Part shown: positions 8,497 to 24,704 of the stretch, piece after piece | How the letters are laid out: each line of letters starts with the position of its first letter | How positions within the stretch are numbered: position 1 is the stretch's first letter | NCBI GenBank assembly: GCA_964016885.1 | Contig: OZ024745.1 | Location: 68,572,001-68,636,000, forward strand | Source of the DNA: Eledone cirrhosa | Taxonomy: Eukaryota | DNA length: 64,000 nt | Direction of reading: 5' to 3' | Position numbers and translations under genes: made by a program | The notes under the pieces: generated by a model | What the model was told of the DNA's origin: nothing | Databases searched by the model: none | The model's input: the letters and a program-made list of their open reading frames with translations, nothing else

Positions 8497-8663
8497 TTAT
8501 ACTACATATATCATATTTCCCGGCGCCGAAGACGCTTCGTCCTCGACCACGAACCCGAATTTTGACAACCAATGATTTGAAAAAAATATATATACAACCT
8601 TCGGCCTCCAGGACGTATGGTAAATTTTTGAGACTTATTTTACGAAAACGTAGCATCTTCGAC

Positions 8664-11600
8664 GCTGCTCAGCCTTAATTTTCATAAGGGAAGTATATAC
8701 TTTCGAACGTTCAACTATCTGGCAGATGGGTAAACGGTGCTGATGATAGCTAACAAGCTTGAAACTAGTACATCGTTCCTGTGTCAGTGTTGAACAAAAA
8801 GGTGACGTGGTTGCCTTAACACCGTATGGCATAAATTCAGGCTGTTCAGTTTGTTTACAAACGAACAAAGCGACGTTATAATAAGCGCCGCTAAACTGAT
8901 ACGTGCATATATGTATGTGTACCTGTATGCATATGTATGTATATATGTATATATATATATATATGTGCATGCTACTGTACGTCTGTATACATATATGTAT
9001 GTACGTATACATGCATACTTACATTTAAGTAAGTGCCATACTAAGAGTGAGAAATGAAATTTCGTTTTCATTTTGTTTCAATTTATCGTTTTCGGTATGC
9101 CTGACTGATTTAACTCACTCAACATGCAAATTAGGCTGCTCAGCCTTAATTTTCATAAGGGAAGTATATACTTTCGAACGTTCAACTATCTGGCAGATGG
9201 GTAAACGGTGCTGATGATAGCTAACAAGCTTGAAACTAGTACATCGTTCCTGTGTCAGTGTTGAACAAAAAGGTGACGTGGTTGCCTTAACACCGTATGG
9301 CATAAATTCAGGCTGTTCAGTTTGTTTACAAACGAACAAAGCGACGTTATAATAAGCGCCGCTAAACTGATACGTGCATATATGTATGTGTACCTGTATG
9401 CATATGTATGTATATATGTATATATATATATATATGTGCATGCTACTGTACGTCTGTATACATATATGTATGTACGTATACATGCATACTTACATTTAAG
9501 TAAGTGCCATACTAAGAGTGAGAAATGAAATTTCGTTTTCATTTTGTTTCAATTTATCGTTTTCGGTATGCCTGACTGATTTAACTCACTCAACATGCAA
9601 ATTAGGCTGCTCAGCCTTAATTTTCATAAGGGAAGTATATACTTTCGAACGTTCAACTATCTGGCAGATGGGTAAACGGTGCTGATGATAGCTAACAAGC
9701 TTGAAACTAGTACATCGTTCCTGTGTCAGTGTTGAACAAAAAGGTGACGTGGTTGCCTTAACACCGTATGGCATAAATTCAGGCTGTTCAGTTTGTTTAC
9801 AAACGAACAAAGCGACGTTATAATAAGCGCCGCTAAACTGATACGTGCATATATGTATGTGTACCTGTATGCATATGTATGTATATATGTATATATATAT
9901 ATATATGTGCATGCTACTGTACGTCTGTATACATATATGTATGTACGTATACATGCATACTTACATTTAAGTAAGTGCCATACTAAGAGTGAGAAATGAA
10001 ATTTCGTTTTCATTTTGTTTCAATTTATCGTTTTCGGTATGCCTGACTGATTTAACTCACTCAACATGCAAATTAGGCTGCTCAGCCTTAATTTTCATAA
10101 GGGAAGTATATACTTTCGAACGTTCAACTATCTGGCAGATGGGTAAACGGTGCTGATGATAGCTAACAAGCTTGAAACTAGTACATCGTTCCTGTGTCAG
10201 TGTTGAACAAAAAGGTGACGTGGTTGCCTTAACACCGTATGGCATAAATTCAGGCTGTTCAGTTTGTTTACAAACGAACAAAGCGACGTTATAATAAGCG
10301 CCGCTAAACTGATACGTGCATATATGTATGTGTACCTGTATGCATATGTATGTATATATGTATATATATATATATATGTGCATGCTACTGTACGTCTGTA
10401 TACATATATGTATGTACGTATACATGCATACTTACATTTAAGTAAGTGCCATACTAAGAGTGAGAAATGAAATTTCGTTTTCATTTTGTTTCAATTTATC
10501 GTTTTCGGTATGCCTGACTGATTTAACTCACTCAACATGCAAATTAGGCTGCTCAGCCTTAATTTTCATAAGGGAAGTATATACTTTCGAACGTTCAACT
10601 ATCTGGCAGATGGGTAAACGGTGCTGATGATAGCTAACAAGCTTGAAACTAGTACATCGTTCCTGTGTCAGTGTTGAACAAAAAGGTGACGTGGTTGCCT
10701 TAACACCGTATGGCATAAATTCAGGCTGTTCAGTTTGTTTACAAACGAACAAAGCGACGTTATAATAAGCGCCGCTAAACTGATACGTGCATATATGTAT
10801 GTGTACCTGTATGCATATGTATGTATATATGTATATATATATATATATGTGCATGCTACTGTACGTCTGTATACATATATGTATGTACGTATACATGCAT
10901 ACTTACATTTAAGTAAGTGCCATACTAAGAGTGAGAAATGAAATTTCGTTTTCATTTTGTTTCAATTTATCGTTTTCGGTATGCCTGACTGATTTAACTC
11001 ACTCAACATGCAAATTAGGCTGCTCAGCCTTAATTTTCATAAGGGAAGTATATACTTTCGAACGTTCAACTATCTGGCAGATGGGTAAACGGTGCTGATG
11101 ATAGCTAACAAGCTTGAAACTAGTACATCGTTCCTGTGTCAGTGTTGAACAAAAAGGTGACGTGGTTGCCTTAACACCGTATGGCATAAATTCAGGCTGT
11201 TCAGTTTGTTTACAAACGAACAAAGCGACGTTATAATAAGCGCCGCTAAACTGATACGTGCATATATGTATGTGTACCTGTATGCATATGTATGTATATA
11301 TGTATATATATATATATATGTGCATGCTACTGTACGTCTGTATACATATATGTATGTACGTATACATGCATACTTACATTTAAGTAAGTGCCATACTAAG
11401 AGTGAGAAATGAAATTTCGTTTTCATTTTGTTTCAATTTATCGTTTTCGGTATGCCTGACTGATTTAACTCACTCAACATGCAAATTAGGCTGCTCAGCC
11501 TTAATTTTCATAAGGGAAGTATATACTTTCGAACGTTCAACTATCTGGCAGATGGGTAAACGGTGCTGATGATAGCTAACAAGCTTGAAACTAGTACATC

Positions 11601-14600
11601 GTTCCTGTGTCAGTGTTGAACAAAAAGGTGACGTGGTTGCCTTAACACCGTATGGCATAAATTCAGGCTGTTCAGTTTGTTTACAAACGAACAAAGCGAC
11701 GTTATAATAAGCGCCGCTAAACTGATACGTGCATATATGTATGTGTACCTGTATGCATATGTATGTATATATGTATATATATATATATATGTGCATGCTA
11801 CTGTACGTCTGTATACATATATGTATGTACGTATACATGCATACTTACATTTAAGTAAGTGCCATACTAAGAGTGAGAAATGAAATTTCGTTTTCATTTT
11901 GTTTCAATTTATCGTTTTCGGTATGCCTGACTGATTTAACTCACTCAACATGCAAATTAGGCTGCTCAGCCTTAATTTTCATAAGGGAAGTATATACTTT
12001 CGAACGTTCAACTATCTGGCAGATGGGTAAACGGTGCTGATGATAGCTAACAAGCTTGAAACTAGTACATCGTTCCTGTGTCAGTGTTGAACAAAAAGGT
12101 GACGTGGTTGCCTTAACACCGTATGGCATAAATTCAGGCTGTTCAGTTTGTTTACAAACGAACAAAGCGACGTTATAATAAGCGCCGCTAAACTGATACG
12201 TGCATATATGTATGTGTACCTGTATGCATATGTATGTATATATGTATATATATATATATATGTGCATGCTACTGTACGTCTGTATACATATATGTATGTA
12301 CGTATACATGCATACTTACATTTAAGTAAGTGCCATACTAAGAGTGAGAAATGAAATTTCGTTTTCATTTTGTTTCAATTTATCGTTTTCGGTATGCCTG
12401 ACTGATTTAACTCACTCAACATGCAAATTAGGCTGCTCAGCCTTAATTTTCATAAGGGAAGTATATACTTTCGAACGTTCAACTATCTGGCAGATGGGTA
12501 AACGGTGCTGATGATAGCTAACAAGCTTGAAACTAGTACATCGTTCCTGTGTCAGTGTTGAACAAAAAGGTGACGTGGTTGCCTTAACACCGTATGGCAT
12601 AAATTCAGGCTGTTCAGTTTGTTTACAAACGAACAAAGCGACGTTATAATAAGCGCCGCTAAACTGATACGTGCATATATGTATGTGTACCTGTATGCAT
12701 ATGTATGTATATATGTATATATATATATATATGTGCATGCTACTGTACGTCTGTATACATATATGTATGTACGTATACATGCATACTTACATTTAAGTAA
12801 GTGCCATACTAAGAGTGAGAAATGAAATTTCGTTTTCATTTTGTTTCAATTTATCGTTTTCGGTATGCCTGACTGATTTAACTCACTCAACATGCAAATT
12901 AGGCTGCTCAGCCTTAATTTTCATAAGGGAAGTATATACTTTCGAACGTTCAACTATCTGGCAGATGGGTAAACGGTGCTGATGATAGCTAACAAGCTTG
13001 AAACTAGTACATCGTTCCTGTGTCAGTGTTGAACAAAAAGGTGACGTGGTTGCCTTAACACCGTATGGCATAAATTCAGGCTGTTCAGTTTGTTTACAAA
13101 CGAACAAAGCGACGTTATAATAAGCGCCGCTAAACTGATACGTGCATATATGTATGTGTACCTGTATGCATATGTATGTATATATGTATATATATATATA
13201 TATGTGCATGCTACTGTACGTCTGTATACATATATGTATGTACGTATACATGCATACTTACATTTAAGTAAGTGCCATACTAAGAGTGAGAAATGAAATT
13301 TCGTTTTCATTTTGTTTCAATTTATCGTTTTCGGTATGCCTGACTGATTTAACTCACTCAACATGCAAATTAGGCTGCTCAGCCTTAATTTTCATAAGGG
13401 AAGTATATACTTTCGAACGTTCAACTATCTGGCAGATGGGTAAACGGTGCTGATGATAGCTAACAAGCTTGAAACTAGTACATCGTTCCTGTGTCAGTGT
13501 TGAACAAAAAGGTGACGTGGTTGCCTTAACACCGTATGGCATAAATTCAGGCTGTTCAGTTTGTTTACAAACGAACAAAGCGACGTTATAATAAGCGCCG
13601 CTAAACTGATACGTGCATATATGTATGTGTACCTGTATGCATATGTATGTATATATGTATATATATATATATATGTGCATGCTACTGTACGTCTGTATAC
13701 ATATATGTATGTACGTATACATGCATACTTACATTTAAGTAAGTGCCATACTAAGAGTGAGAAATGAAATTTCGTTTTCATTTTGTTTCAATTTATCGTT
13801 TTCGGTATGCCTGACTGATTTAACTCACTCAACATGCAAATTAGGCTGCTCAGCCTTAATTTTCATAAGGGAAGTATATACTTTCGAACGTTCAACTATC
13901 TGGCAGATGGGTAAACGGTGCTGATGATAGCTAACAAGCTTGAAACTAGTACATCGTTCCTGTGTCAGTGTTGAACAAAAAGGTGACGTGGTTGCCTTAA
14001 CACCGTATGGCATAAATTCAGGCTGTTCAGTTTGTTTACAAACGAACAAAGCGACGTTATAATAAGCGCCGCTAAACTGATACGTGCATATATGTATGTG
14101 TACCTGTATGCATATGTATGTATATATGTATATATATATATATATGTGCATGCTACTGTACGTCTGTATACATATATGTATGTACGTATACATGCATACT
14201 TACATTTAAGTAAGTGCCATACTAAGAGTGAGAAATGAAATTTCGTTTTCATTTTGTTTCAATTTATCGTTTTCGGTATGCCTGACTGATTTAACTCACT
14301 CAACATGCAAATTAGGCTGCTCAGCCTTAATTTTCATAAGGGAAGTATATACTTTCGAACGTTCAACTATCTGGCAGATGGGTAAACGGTGCTGATGATA
14401 GCTAACAAGCTTGAAACTAGTACATCGTTCCTGTGTCAGTGTTGAACAAAAAGGTGACGTGGTTGCCTTAACACCGTATGGCATAAATTCAGGCTGTTCA
14501 GTTTGTTTACAAACGAACAAAGCGACGTTATAATAAGCGCCGCTAAACTGATACGTGCATATATGTATGTGTACCTGTATGCATATGTATGTATATATGT

Positions 14601-14735
14601 ATATATATATATATATGTGCATGCTACTGTACGTCTGTATACATATATGTATGTACGTATACATGCATACTTACATTTAAGTAAGTGCCATACTAAGAGT
14701 GAGAAATGAAATTTCGTTTTCATTTTGTTTCAATT

Positions 14736-14738
<3 letters not shown>
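8664..14738 (+). mobile_element. 471-bp tandem array (12.9 copies), each unit with a hammerhead ribozyme: candidate non-LTR retrozyme or PLE pseudo-LTR array
   Basis: Exact 471-bp period (ORF track repeats identically at +471); unit starts GCTGCTCAGCC at 8664 and the last copy ends CAATTTAT at 14738, running into (TA)n. Confidence 0.85.
8733..8777 (+). ncRNA. Minimal type I hammerhead ribozyme (copy 1 of 13; others start at 9204, 9675, 10146, 10617, 11088, 11559, 12030, 12501, 12972, 13443, 13914, 14385)
   Basis: AACGGUG-CUGAUGA-U AGCU AACA AGCU U-GAAA-CUAG-UA-CAUCGUU: 7-bp stem I (one G.U), 4-bp stem II, palindromic ACUAGU stem III; predicted cleavage after GUA at 8770. Confidence 0.85.

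Positions 14739-14830
<92 letters not shown>
14739..14830. repeat. (TA)n microsatellite between the array and the PLE 3' end
   Basis: Directly visible. Confidence 0.95.
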
Positions 14831-14831
<1 letters not shown>

Positions 14832-16547
14832 GAAAAGATGAATATAAAATGAAAGTGCTTTTATAAAGGAATTTATTAGGTATTGACATATGTTTCTGTA
14901 ACAGACGGAATACCTATGTATCGCTGCTTGCGTAATCATATAATGTTAGCAAGTATTCGATAGCAAATGTATAATCAGTTGTCACTTCTTCAGAGATATT
15001 GTATAAATTGGAAAAAATCAGAAAAATTGAAGTATTTATATTAGTTGTAAGAAAGGAAGAAGAGAGGGGATAGTATATGACAGATGGCAATTCAATTTAC
15101 TGGTAAACAAGTATATAAAAGGTTTCTAATGAGAATACAATGAGTATATGGTTTATTTTATCTAAATAAGAATTTTTGGGAGTGCCTATTTTAATCTATA
15201 CTTGACCAATTGAACAATGGACAGGGCTGGTCGTTTGGTGTAGTAGTATTAATAGATATAAAGTATCAATTAAGGAAGAGGGAGATTTTCACTGCTACTG
15301 CATAACAACAATGCTGGTAGCCTGCTGGTATATGCATTAGGGAATTGAATTAAGAAATCCATTTTATCTATAGCAGTTTATATTAAATGGTAAAGAATAG
15401 AAGAGTTGATAGAATTAAGACTAATAGAGAATGTTAATATGTATTTTGACAATCAAACGGAGATGGAGACAGGCGTTCAATCCTGGTAGTGTTTGTAATA
15501 TGAAAATGTAGATTTCAAGCGATGGTTACAGTATAACGATCGCTCTATTCTGTTATTTAATAAAATATTTTTGGATTTCATAATACAAAATAATTCCATA
15601 TTACACAATTTACAAAATTCTTGTCCGCGGATATGCAGGGGCATTGTTATTATATCCCATTTTAGGTTAAATTGTGGGTTATTTTTGCGCAGCTGCCAAG
15701 CCTTGTCTGCAAGTGTTGTTACATAACGCTGGTTTTCATGTTTTATCGAGTAACGATGTCTATAAAGGCGAGATTTGAAGGAGGTAGATGTAGACCCCAC
15801 ATAGTACCACTTCTGGCTATCCGATTCGATAGTACATTTGTATATGATGTTGCGTTCAAGACACTGATTGTTCAACGGACACATTCCTGGTTGGACACAG
15901 TTACAGTTATAATTTTGCGTTATTGTATTGGCATGGATGGGTTGATGAGGTTGCTTAGGTAGGACGGGATGTTGTTTGTTGTTTTGTGATGTTATAGCCG
16001 ATGTTTTACGTGTATTGTTATGTGTTGGAAGGCATTTATACAACCGTTTTGCGTTAAGCTTTTTTATATGTTGTTCAATACTAGGGGCGGTTGAATATGA
16101 AAGTCGAATAGTGTTAGGGTTTAAGATTTTATTATATTTATGTGATGTTGGAAAGTGTTTTTTAACTAATCGAAAGAATTGTGAGGGTAGATTGGTTTTA
16201 ATAGAGTTATTATAGACCGGGTTGTACCATATATACTCTTTACATCGCCTTCCGTTTGGTGGTGTGCGACTATTAGAGTGTCTATTGCGGTAGTGTATGT
16301 ATGGTGGTGATTCTATGCTATTTCTACCTCTATGAGATTTATTTTGGGTGTTTTGGTGATCGTCGACTATATACTCTATATTATCTAGGTGTCCAGCCAT
16401 ACTAAGTGCATCATCATAATATTCAGCATGTTCTTTGAAGGTTTGCTGGTTGGACGACAGGCGGGAGATTCTAAGGGAAATATTTCTAGGGATGGATTTA
16501 ATTATAGAGGGTGGATGGTTAGAACCCGTATTTACATATTTAAGGTT

Positions 16548-16550
<3 letters not shown>
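14831..16550 (-). mobile_element. 5'-truncated Penelope-like retroelement (RT thumb, linker, GIY-YIG endonuclease, 3' region)
   Basis: Open frame bounded by (TA)n on both sides; see the ORF motifs at 15477-16550. Confidence 0.85.
15477..16550 (-). pseudogene. C-terminal part of a PLE polyprotein (RT thumb plus GIY-YIG endonuclease)
   Basis: [17 protein letters not shown] (PLE RT thumb), IWYNPVY..KHFP..RLSYS linker, CNC..CPL..C, NIIYKC..YYVGST..FKSRLYRH (GIY-YIG), CKLCNME..LLN. The ORF-track N-terminus is microsatellite read-through. Confidence 0.88.
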
Positions 16551-18229
<1,679 letters not shown>

Positions 18230-23398: not shown

Positions 23399-24704
23399 AT
23401 ATGAAAAAAGTTTGTCCTTCATCAGTGATCTTCCAACTATCATAGGCATTTCATCGCTTTAAAGACCATATACCTCCGGTTGGTGCGAGCAACGGCTAAA
23501 AAAAGTCGTTGGGACACGTAAATAAAGGGGACACGAGGGTAAACAAACAAAATGGTGAAGCAACAGAAAGTGAGGAAGAAGGAGACAAGTCCCAGATTTC
23601 TATGAATTTAAGTTCGGTGAAATCGTGAACGAGAGAATAAAGACCATCAAACCTGGTTGAAATGTGAGCAAGGAAGGAATTTCGCACAGGTCTAATGGGA
23701 GGAAGAAGGGGTCTGGTATGCGAATTCGGTAAACATAAGTTCTGTGAAATCGTAGACGAGAGAGAAAAAATTCCGACCAGCTTGGCCGAGAATGTGAGAG
23801 AAGAGAGTTACTCACAGGTCAAACGGGAAGAAAGAGGAGGAGGAGAGGTAGTGACAGAGAATGAGTGAGTGAAGGGTGAGGAAGAGGCTAACAGAGAAAG
23901 AGACTGCTAGAAAGGGTAAAGATACATAGAACGAAAAAGATGGTGTAGCAGCAGAGGAAAAAATATGTGTAAATATGATAATAAGGGCGCTGCGGAGTTG
24001 CAAATGATAGTTGGAAGATCACTGATGAAGGACAAACTTTTTTCATATGTAACCCATTTGCAACTCCTCAGCGCCCTTATTATCATATTTACACATATTT
24101 TTTCCTCTGCTGCTACACCGTCTTTTTCGTTCTATGTATCTTTACCCTTTCTAGCACTCTCTCTCTCTCTGTTAGCCTCTTCCTCACCCTTCACTCACTC
24201 ATTCTCTGTCACTACCTCTCCTCCTCCTCTTTCTTCCCGTTTGACCTGTGAGTAATTCTTTTCTCTCACATTCTCGGCCAAGCTGGTCGGAATTTTTTCT
24301 CTCTCGTCTACGATTTCACAGAACTTATGTTTACCGAATTCGCAGACCAGACCCCTTCTTCCTCCCGTTAGACCTGTGCGAAATTCCTTCCTTGCTCACA
24401 TTTCAACCAGGTTTGATGGTCTTTATTCTCTCGTTCACGATTTCACCGAACTTAAATTCATAGAAATCTGGGACTTGTCTCCTTCTTCCTCACTTTCTGT
24501 TGCTTCACCATTTTGTTTGTTTACCCTCGTGTCCCCTTTATTTACGTGTCCCAACGACTTTTTTTAGCCGTTGCTCGCACCAACCGGAGGTATATGGTCT
24601 TTAAAGCTATGAAATGCCTATGATAGTTGGAAGATCACTGATGAAGGACAAACTTTTTTCATATGTAACCCATTTGCAACTCCGCAGCGCCCTTATTATC
24701 ATAT
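23399..24704. repeat. About 610-bp near-perfect inverted repeat with partial tandem 616-bp unit
   Basis: Arms 23399-24006 and 24055-24664 (mirror ORFs in the track); 24004-24088 repeated directly at 24620-24704. Confidence 0.92.

Follow-up and report, generated by a model that had tools for sequence, protein, structure and literature searches.

What kind of element is a 471-bp sequence that carries a ribozyme motif and stands thirteen times in a row without a single change, and how was it written into the genome of Eledone cirrhosa? In the window, by which we mean the whole 64,000-nt stretch analysed, the array occupies positions 8664 to 14738 of the plus strand as a single arm, and TRF gave a period of 471, 12.9 copies and 100% matches. 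Units 1 to 12 have 0 mismatches relative to unit 1, and unit 13 is identical up to 14738, the start of a (TA)n tract; the thirteen tandem units counted in the initial annotation are therefore present, each with its hammerhead motif. A misassembly may still have affected the exact count of 13, on which contigs from public sequencing runs, likewise silent on expression, gave no information. The unit has a GC content of about 36% and, as had also been claimed, encodes no credible protein: its two ORFs, which lie on the minus strand and run from stop to stop (124 and 97 aa), lack a Pfam match, an ORF and Pfam search of the unit did not find the RT and GIY-YIG ORF of an autonomous Penelope-like element (PLE), and we found no long ORF within the mapped family arrays. 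Two features described as atypical proved to be ordinary. Published retrozyme units span 51-972 bp (Li, Clavereau & Pollet, bioRxiv 10.64898/2026.07.22.740005; 150-450 bp in Cervera & de la Pena 2020, PMC7229834), and the TA/TATG tract (8895..9016, plus strand) is a long hairpin of ~120 nt (fold z -3.6) with a counterpart in a 420-nt sister family; in those family members that are edited, A>G changes cluster there. The monomer between two predicted cut sites (8771..9241, plus strand), a putative linear or circular RNA, is highly self-paired; its overall fold z of -7.6 is largely due to the TA hairpin, for the parts on either side reach only -1.4 and -1.8.

The first type I hammerhead motif lies at 8733..8777 on the plus strand, with a predicted cut after 8770, and recurs every 471 bp, 13 times (CTGATGA-14 nt-GAAA-CTA-GTA at 8740+471n). 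CUGANGA, GAAA, NUH and the three helices of a type I hammerhead are all present: a 7-bp stem I (AACGGTG/CATCGTT) in each motif, a stem II of U·U plus 4 bp with an AACA loop, and a palindromic ACUAGU stem III of 2 bp, with GUA as the triplet. Of the full type I core attributed to every unit, the motif and the paired stem I hold in 13/13 cases; what does not hold is the G10.1-C11.1 pair closing helix II, which is absent, and stem III is short. A U·U replaces that pair in 741/741 family copies examined, a count obtained with a search pattern that demanded T at both places, and is seen directly in the window copies. When checked against Rfam, the sequence gave no match at the gathering score and only Hammerhead_HH9 at 18.5 bits (E 0.14), and the hammerhead is not the MFE fold of the isolated motif. 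Matches to miRNA families at the E-value level were set aside, as they derive from the TA tract.

Searching the genome for dispersed copies returned 10,122 exact matches to the 40-nt ribozyme, in dispersed arrays, versus 0 for the reversed control. The covariation proposed as a check on the stems was seen as compensatory changes in relatives. Stem I pair 3 is G-U in 640, U-G in 81, A-U in 13 and U-A in 4 of the 741 copies, and N7 is U, C or A, variation that suggests a ribozyme fold under selection. The compensatory alignment has its distal stem I register partly off (54% of helix 1 is paired), and most of the double changes come from a non-homologous 310-nt family, which accounts for 2 of its 10 rows. 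Copy number and compensatory changes together indicate that the motif in the array is more than chance. That a transcript would be cut in each 471-nt unit, as first expected, is probably an overstatement: the array hammerhead resembles axolotl HHR_Amex2 in the U·U at the base of helix II and the 2-bp helix III, and by this analogy cleavage of the array transcript is likely partial. HHR_Amex2 is reported to cleave to 22% as a monomer and better as a dimer, and only one of nine Xenopus dimers to have been cleaved in vitro.

With a hammerhead in each unit, a non-coding unit and dispersed copies, the array is, on sequence grounds, an arm of a young family of metazoan non-LTR retrozymes, as first proposed. 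The element class is already known, and intact PLE ORFs co-occur with the family in the source genome.

How such units are inserted is visible in their ends, which the initial annotation had missed. Family insertions lie in (TA)n, and their 3' ends coincide with two fixed internal sites 59-65 nt apart rather than with the cut site. Shown on the monomer that follows the first cut site, site B is in the loop of a small hairpin (9021..9027, plus strand; monomer 251-257), and the 'tail' between the sites (9028..9086, plus strand; monomer 258-316) ends at site A. Across the genome we counted 890 junctions at site A and 935 at site B, with 0 in the controls, and in loci found without end patterns 12/12 ends were at A or B. 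Most insertions are head-to-head, with one arm ending at each site. For the first 337 Mb of C1, 100 matches were listed for each site, of which 8 A matches lying beyond the end of the B list were dropped; among the remaining 92 A and the 100 B matches there were 59 divergent A-B neighbours, 0 A-A and 0 divergent B-B. Two-armed insertions were A-B in 6/6 cases from an unanchored search and in 21/24 cases picked by one end only, and the larger locus set, most of which had been chosen beforehand as A-B pairs, gave 78 A-B junctions out of 87, with 9 insertions left out of its arm-length statistics for being truncated or nested. One A-A junction was traced to a neighbouring sister-family fragment (L065) and the B-B junction of L143 to incomplete locus sequence; L126, a B-B junction with a 207-nt insert, is a standing exception. 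The A-B layout recurs in the 420-nt sister family and in an autonomous 781-aa PLE of the same genome, and fixed ends with A-B pairing are the Penelope 'tail' signature. Together with the (TA)n targets, they support the suggested mobilisation by a Penelope-like element.

The array in the window fits this layout as one arm. Its 3' end is site A, at 14738, overlapping by 3 nt the (TA)n target tract (14736..14831), and its 5' end is truncated at monomer position 365. There it meets an unrelated MITE-like repeat of ~175 bp (8505..8665; 2290 candidates at 86-89% identity), whose right inverted repeat lacks its last ~14 bases, through a 2-nt (GC) microhomology; we had considered this left flank as part of the element and rejected that assignment. 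On the other side, a 5'-truncated autonomous-type PLE (14832..16550, minus strand; GIY-YIG remnant 15477-16547) abuts the same (TA)n with its own short end. It is, judging from its sequence, an independent insertion not homologous to the retrozyme: there is no homology beyond TA that would make it a proven partner, and its end motifs resemble those of the retrozyme over 6-8 nt only, a likeness that chance can give in AT-rich DNA. Intact 781-aa PLE ORFs exist elsewhere in the source genome. A comparison with 20 clusters of PLE 3' regions, which sampled some of the PLE families of the genome, brought up none whose terminal repeat is homologous (the best z was 3.4, over 23 nt), and a search for an autonomous parent with the CUGAAGA variant gave 115 matches, of which the 20 loci listed, plus 20 stretches, were all retrozyme relatives.

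We consider it probable that the array is one arm of a non-autonomous retrozyme, written by a PLE into (TA)n from one small RNA circle copied about 13 times. Since the array in the window carries no polymorphism, a circular and a linear template look the same from the window alone, and the evidence on the template comes from other family members. In some of these, the ribozyme strand bears clustered A>G changes that repeat in every unit, and in both arms of single insertions. In a first locus set, 19/30 shared substitutions were A>G versus 11/155 singletons, 13 of the 19 shared sites coming from two insertions; without those two hyper-edited insertions the pooled counts were 9/30 shared versus 15/201 singletons (p 0.001), and a second set of 42 loci, not significant alone, gave 3/14 versus 4/46 (p 0.34). 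These counts exclude ten common subfamily alleles and positions 128-215, and six loci were dropped as diverged subfamily members (L137 and L149 from the first set; L266, L272, L292 and L298 from the second). A 5' G precedes 1/22 edited sites versus 16/118 A's, a weak trend. The clusters are likely fossil ADAR edits of one RNA that was copied repeatedly, most simply as a circle. Their strand specificity suggests that the arrays were transcribed on the ribozyme strand, in agreement with the plus-strand RNA that the initial annotation, partly supported overall, had assumed.

Single insertions show the same repetition. L148 has four A>G edits in 3/3 units and both arms, with a 29-nt pattern containing three of them that is unique in the genome, and in the array L143/L212 a unit X (14 A>G) alternates with a unit Y (5 A>G), 11 full units in all. 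In one arm (L074), 5/5 junctions lack 7 nt right next to the cut site, a deletion seen nowhere else. Private variants are fixed in all units and both arms of L081 (9/9), L089 (6/6), L071 (5/5), L129 (5/5), L291 (14/14) and L302 (10/10), which points to one template for both arms. Counter-cases are L031, L034, L136 and L289, with subset or higher-order unit patterns, and L255/L119. Indirectly, repeated edits and arrays of period 2 favour circles, and the array L255/L119 a linear multimer.

The same two-site priming by a PLE could instead have used a linear, largely uncut multimeric transcript, its homogeneity inherited from a source array duplicated as DNA. This reading, which we hold to be unlikely, draws on L255/L119, where the same three-unit run, offset by one unit and not periodic throughout, appears in both arms (duplication at the DNA level would fit as well), on a variant mirrored between the arms of L120, and on the existence of an old satellite-like array with heterogeneous units (L244). 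An anole PLE, moreover, is reported to take uncut RNA as its main substrate in vitro and to insert ribozyme mutants as well (Frangieh 2024, PMC11167929). Edits on a multimer should, however, vary from unit to unit, yet identical clusters repeat in all units, and among singletons A>G is not in excess (11, versus 26 T>C); nor did we find elsewhere in the genome a source array for the marks of L148, L143/L212 or L074.

Improbable in our estimation is a template in the form of a linear monomer (or dimer) that has been cut but is kept together at its ends by stem I, with the RT jumping from the 5' end back to the 3' end, as on a pseudo-circle, or between cut units. It would explain the repeated edits and the L074 deletion equally well, and L034 contains a haplotype switch inside one arm. 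In addition, there is a mild excess of 5' ends immediately past the cut site (21/174 at positions 1-30, where ~11 would be expected), and the single arm L038 begins at that site, so that cut linear RNA may have served as the template in some cases. Against this reading, unit junctions are as exact as control windows (17/541 versus 9-28 of 519-579), arrays are not random mosaics of common haplotypes, and 0/174 inversion-junction ends fall exactly on the cut site, several running 7-17 nt past it. The accumulation of 5' ends that a first map showed at the cut site was an artefact of hit splitting at the monomer boundary that exact extension removed, and a 5'-end peak at monomer 376 was likewise artificial, caused by an indel variant. 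It is very hard to credit that an ordinary satellite, or an expansion in the assembly, grew around a chance or dead hammerhead and was amplified only as DNA: 13 identical copies with no independent read spanning the array and the lack of an Rfam match at the gathering score speak for it, but it is largely refuted by insertions that are dispersed, have fixed ends and pair as A-B, by A>G clusters confined to one strand and by compensatory pairs.

Under the preferred reading, copying by a PLE from a small RNA circle, arrays would be transcribed on the ribozyme strand, as the strand-specific A>G marks suggest. By analogy with known retrozymes, the weak hammerhead would then cut in part, probably as a dimer, and a ligase would close monomers and some multimers into circles. 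ADAR would edit the paired RNA. A PLE protein, probably also a dimer, would break (TA)n and prime the two DNA ends on a single RNA molecule, using site A for one and site B for the other; the ends and their pairing are observed and the enzyme is presumed. Each cDNA would run a variable distance round the template, after which either microhomology would link the two 5' ends or a lone arm would be attached directly to the flank, the case in the window; both kinds of junction are seen.

We lean slightly towards the broader view that the genome holds a fossil record of single circular RNAs, with a dimeric Penelope RT engaging one ADAR-edited circle, monomer or dimer, at two fixed, non-equivalent sites and carrying out rolling-circle synthesis from both ends of a break. 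If true, the editing state of one RNA molecule, and even a mis-ligated junction, was written repeatedly into germline DNA, a heritable write-back of A-to-I edits, and the PLE tail and inverted copy would be one asymmetric two-site reaction on one template. The data suggest that retrozyme copying may fix RNA edits in DNA. For the questions of how animal retrozymes move and why PLEs have a tail and an inverted copy, the family offers predicted starts (monomer 316 and 251-257), a (TA)n target, a one-end-each rule and candidate enzymes with intact ORFs.

Like the metazoan non-LTR retrozymes described in PMC7229834 and 10.64898/2026.07.22.740005, the family consists of non-coding tandem repeats with one type I hammerhead per unit, a GC content below 50%, a self-paired monomer, dispersed arrays and PLEs in the same genome. 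For published retrozymes, expression, cleavage and circles have been demonstrated; for the present array they are predictions. Circle copying by PLE enzymes has been proposed in that literature; fixed internal ends are not described in those accounts as far as they were available, nor are strict two-armed A-B insertions into (TA)n or DNA editing marks, and a full-text search of openly accessible articles, judged by titles and abstract starts, returned no description of any of the three in retrozymes. In Xenopus, 24/57 retrozyme families are reported to match known TEs, and 21 of the 22 TEs concerned are PLEs, unlike the family studied here, for which no homologous PLE terminal repeat was found in the 20 clusters compared. 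Its ribozyme shares with the metazoan type I hammerheads of Cervera & de la Pena 2014 (PMC4209133) a helix I of ~6 bp, a helix II of 4 bp and a helix III of 1-2 bp with a palindromic loop, for which action as a dimer is expected, but differs from them in the U·U that replaces the conserved G10.1-C11.1. The closest parallel in insertion is to PLEs (Frangieh 2024, PMC11167929; Craig 2021, PMC8557442), which likewise have two start sites bounding a tail, inverted 5'-truncated copies, tandem copies, (TA)n targeting and a type I hammerhead upstream of the start sites. Frangieh 2024 shows for a PLE that the RT starts at two internal sites and that both strands are extended, and predicts that the protein is a dimer; Craig 2021 ascribes the tail to endonuclease resolution; the portions of these two papers available to us do not state a one-A-one-B rule or a shared template for both arms. 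The retrozyme departs from PLEs in having no ORF, a tail of 59-65 nt versus 30-40, and two arms that can each be a long multimer, of 25 or more units.

The tandem array reported in the initial annotation at window positions 8664-14738 is borne out, with 12.9 copies of a 471-bp unit and zero mismatches among units. The accompanying claim of a type I hammerhead in every unit stands for the canonical metazoan layout but not for the base of helix II, where there is a U·U: each unit reads AACGGTG-CTGATGA-T-AGCT-AACA-AGCT-T-GAAA-CTA-GTA-CATCGTT, with plus-strand cleavage predicted after 8770+471n. This U·U is the sole departure from the canonical metazoan type I layout as given by Cervera & de la Pena 2014 (PMC4209133), and the same mismatch occurs in axolotl HHR_Amex2, whose cleavage is weak in the monomer and improves in the dimer. 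An Rfam search with the hammerhead returned HH9 as its sole match, below threshold. Of 741 family copies, 738 have G-U, U-G, A-U or U-A at pair 3 of stem I, and the bases found at N7 are U, C and A. An unrelated ~300-nt family in the searched genome (G000) shares this architecture down to the U·U, with a different sequence. Because pair 3 is kept paired and the architecture recurs in an unrelated family, the hammerhead fold is likely under selection, and ribozyme activity is predicted. The ~300-nt family (L163:93-169, L247:5921-5997 and L104) constitutes a second, non-homologous retrozyme family.

The exact 40-nt ribozyme has 10,122 matches in this 3.0-Gb genome (reversed control, 0), and the tail motif of a sister family of ~420 nt is found in 3,217 copies. 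Since the window haplotype is present in just 1 of 85 other loci, the window array is likely a very young branch of the family. One locus, L244 (G000:C2:383027500-383037499), holds at least 10 kb of older units at 82-89% identity in a single orientation, and is a retrozyme turned satellite.

Numbering the monomer from the predicted cut site, insertion ends adjoining (TA)n fall at two fixed positions, site A (316; 890 junctions) and site B (251-257; 935 junctions), and all 12 ends from loci retrieved independently of end patterns were A or B. Most insertions are laid out head to head, as two arms of opposite orientation. The first 337 Mb of sequence C1 contained 59 divergent A-B pairs from 92 A and 100 B matches, with 0 A-A pairs and 0 divergent B-B pairs; two-armed insertions sampled without pair selection were of A-B type in 6/6 and 21/24 cases. 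Inner junctions are scattered over the whole unit, with 1-8 nt of overlap in 51/87. Arm lengths (medians 577 and 524 bp, skewed distributions) are uncorrelated between the two arms, and one arm extends to at least 25 units. The window array is a lone A arm whose 5′ end abuts, with a 2-nt overlap and loss of the repeat's end, a MITE-like repeat (8505-8665; ~175 bp, terminal inverted repeats, 2290 candidates). Ends of the sister family lie at sites equivalent to A and B. In one single-arm insertion (L033:4530-4615), an inverted flank duplication surrounds (TA)n at the 5′ junction, resembling a fold-back of the target end prior to joining. Foreign inserts of 200-1250 bp lie within or between the arms at L076, L126, L136 and L137, some deriving from other repeats that had gone into the TA tract.

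An autonomous 781-aa RT/GIY-YIG Penelope-like element (PLE), a fragment of which adjoins the array region (14832-16550, minus strand), has its own long and short ends, separated by ~109 nt and arranged in inverted fashion as in the retrozyme. We place it tentatively in the Neptune clade, partly on the basis of a cysteine motif described in Craig 2021 (PMC8557442). In Frangieh 2024 (PMC11167929), in vitro reverse transcription by a PLE began at two internal sites, one on either side of the tail (here the stretch between A and B), and both DNA strands were extended. From the fixed ends, the A-B layout, the autonomous parallel and these in vitro data, we strongly infer that the retrozyme is mobilised by a PLE, very probably by PLE-type mobilisation from plus-strand RNA. 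No partner family with homologous ends emerged from 20 clusters of PLE 3′ regions or from 20 ribozyme-variant loci, and the PLE next to the array showed no homology to the retrozyme beyond TA. The 781-aa family itself (also at L213 and L214) is abundant, with 77,535 candidates, a 3115-bp unit, many 781-aa frames still open and a hammerhead-like motif with a long stem II insert. Elsewhere in the window, a 1.27-kb palindrome (23399-24667; 96%) flanked by (TA)n runs has one arm that extends ~40 nt further outward and CTGATGA near both ends, and resembles a further two-armed, PLE-type insertion carrying a tail. A 194-aa minus-strand frame (17140-17724) matched nothing in Pfam and resembles a Helitron/Pif1 helicase fragment; a strongly purine-skewed 40-bp satellite (~886 copies, 92% matches) occupies 28555-64000, reaching the window end.

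Variants private to an insertion are frequently fixed across all its units and both arms, so both arms were likely copied from one template. Clustered A>G changes in paired RNA are a signature of ADAR. Over the first 109 loci, ribozyme-strand A>G accounted for 19 of 30 substitutions common to at least two units (T>C, 1) and 11 of 155 singletons; among 42 further loci, analysed as a second set, the difference was not significant (3/14 shared vs 4/46 singleton). Pooled, with two hyper-edited insertions left out, the counts were 9/30 shared vs 15/201 singleton (p 0.001), and, counted by insertion, shared A>G occurred in 11 and shared T>C in 2. Family-wide singletons on the ribozyme strand showed T>C 26 vs A>G 11 (p 0.02), which might reflect biased G·U misincorporation by the RT. 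L148 has, within a single hairpin region, four A>G changes that are present in 3/3 units and both arms, and the pattern with three of the four is unique in the genome. At L143/L212, two unit types, X and Y, alternate over 11 full units with 14 vs 5 A>G changes; every substitution in units 1-10 is A>G, the last unit adding two G>A within the TA tract alignment. These marks recur in the opposite arm, their sole outside match being a diverged, separately changed relative.

Such repeated edits are most simply accounted for by an RT that would pass repeatedly round a monomer or dimer circle, repeating one RNA's edits; axolotl retrozymes form dimer circles in vitro. At L074, a 7-nt deletion abuts the cut site in 5/5 of the junctions of one arm and is found only there; unit junctions are otherwise exact to the same degree as control windows. 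The circle reading has limits: 5′ ends are mildly enriched directly downstream of the cut site, and a part is also played by linear multimers or DNA duplication, as indicated by a three-unit run at L255/L119 that is mirrored in both arms and not periodic throughout, and by subset patterns in several arrays; the XY block of L143 may have been duplicated at the DNA level. We consider the circular template the probable main route, a reading drawn from the edited loci, as the window array is invariant and its own units do not record template type.

The literature searched, as far as its text was available, yielded no report of a two-site, two-armed footprint or of editing fossils in retrozymes. 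In its testable features the array matches metazoan non-LTR retrozymes and, judged from its sequence, would work like them, and PLE-driven copying of circles is likewise proposed in the available literature on those elements.
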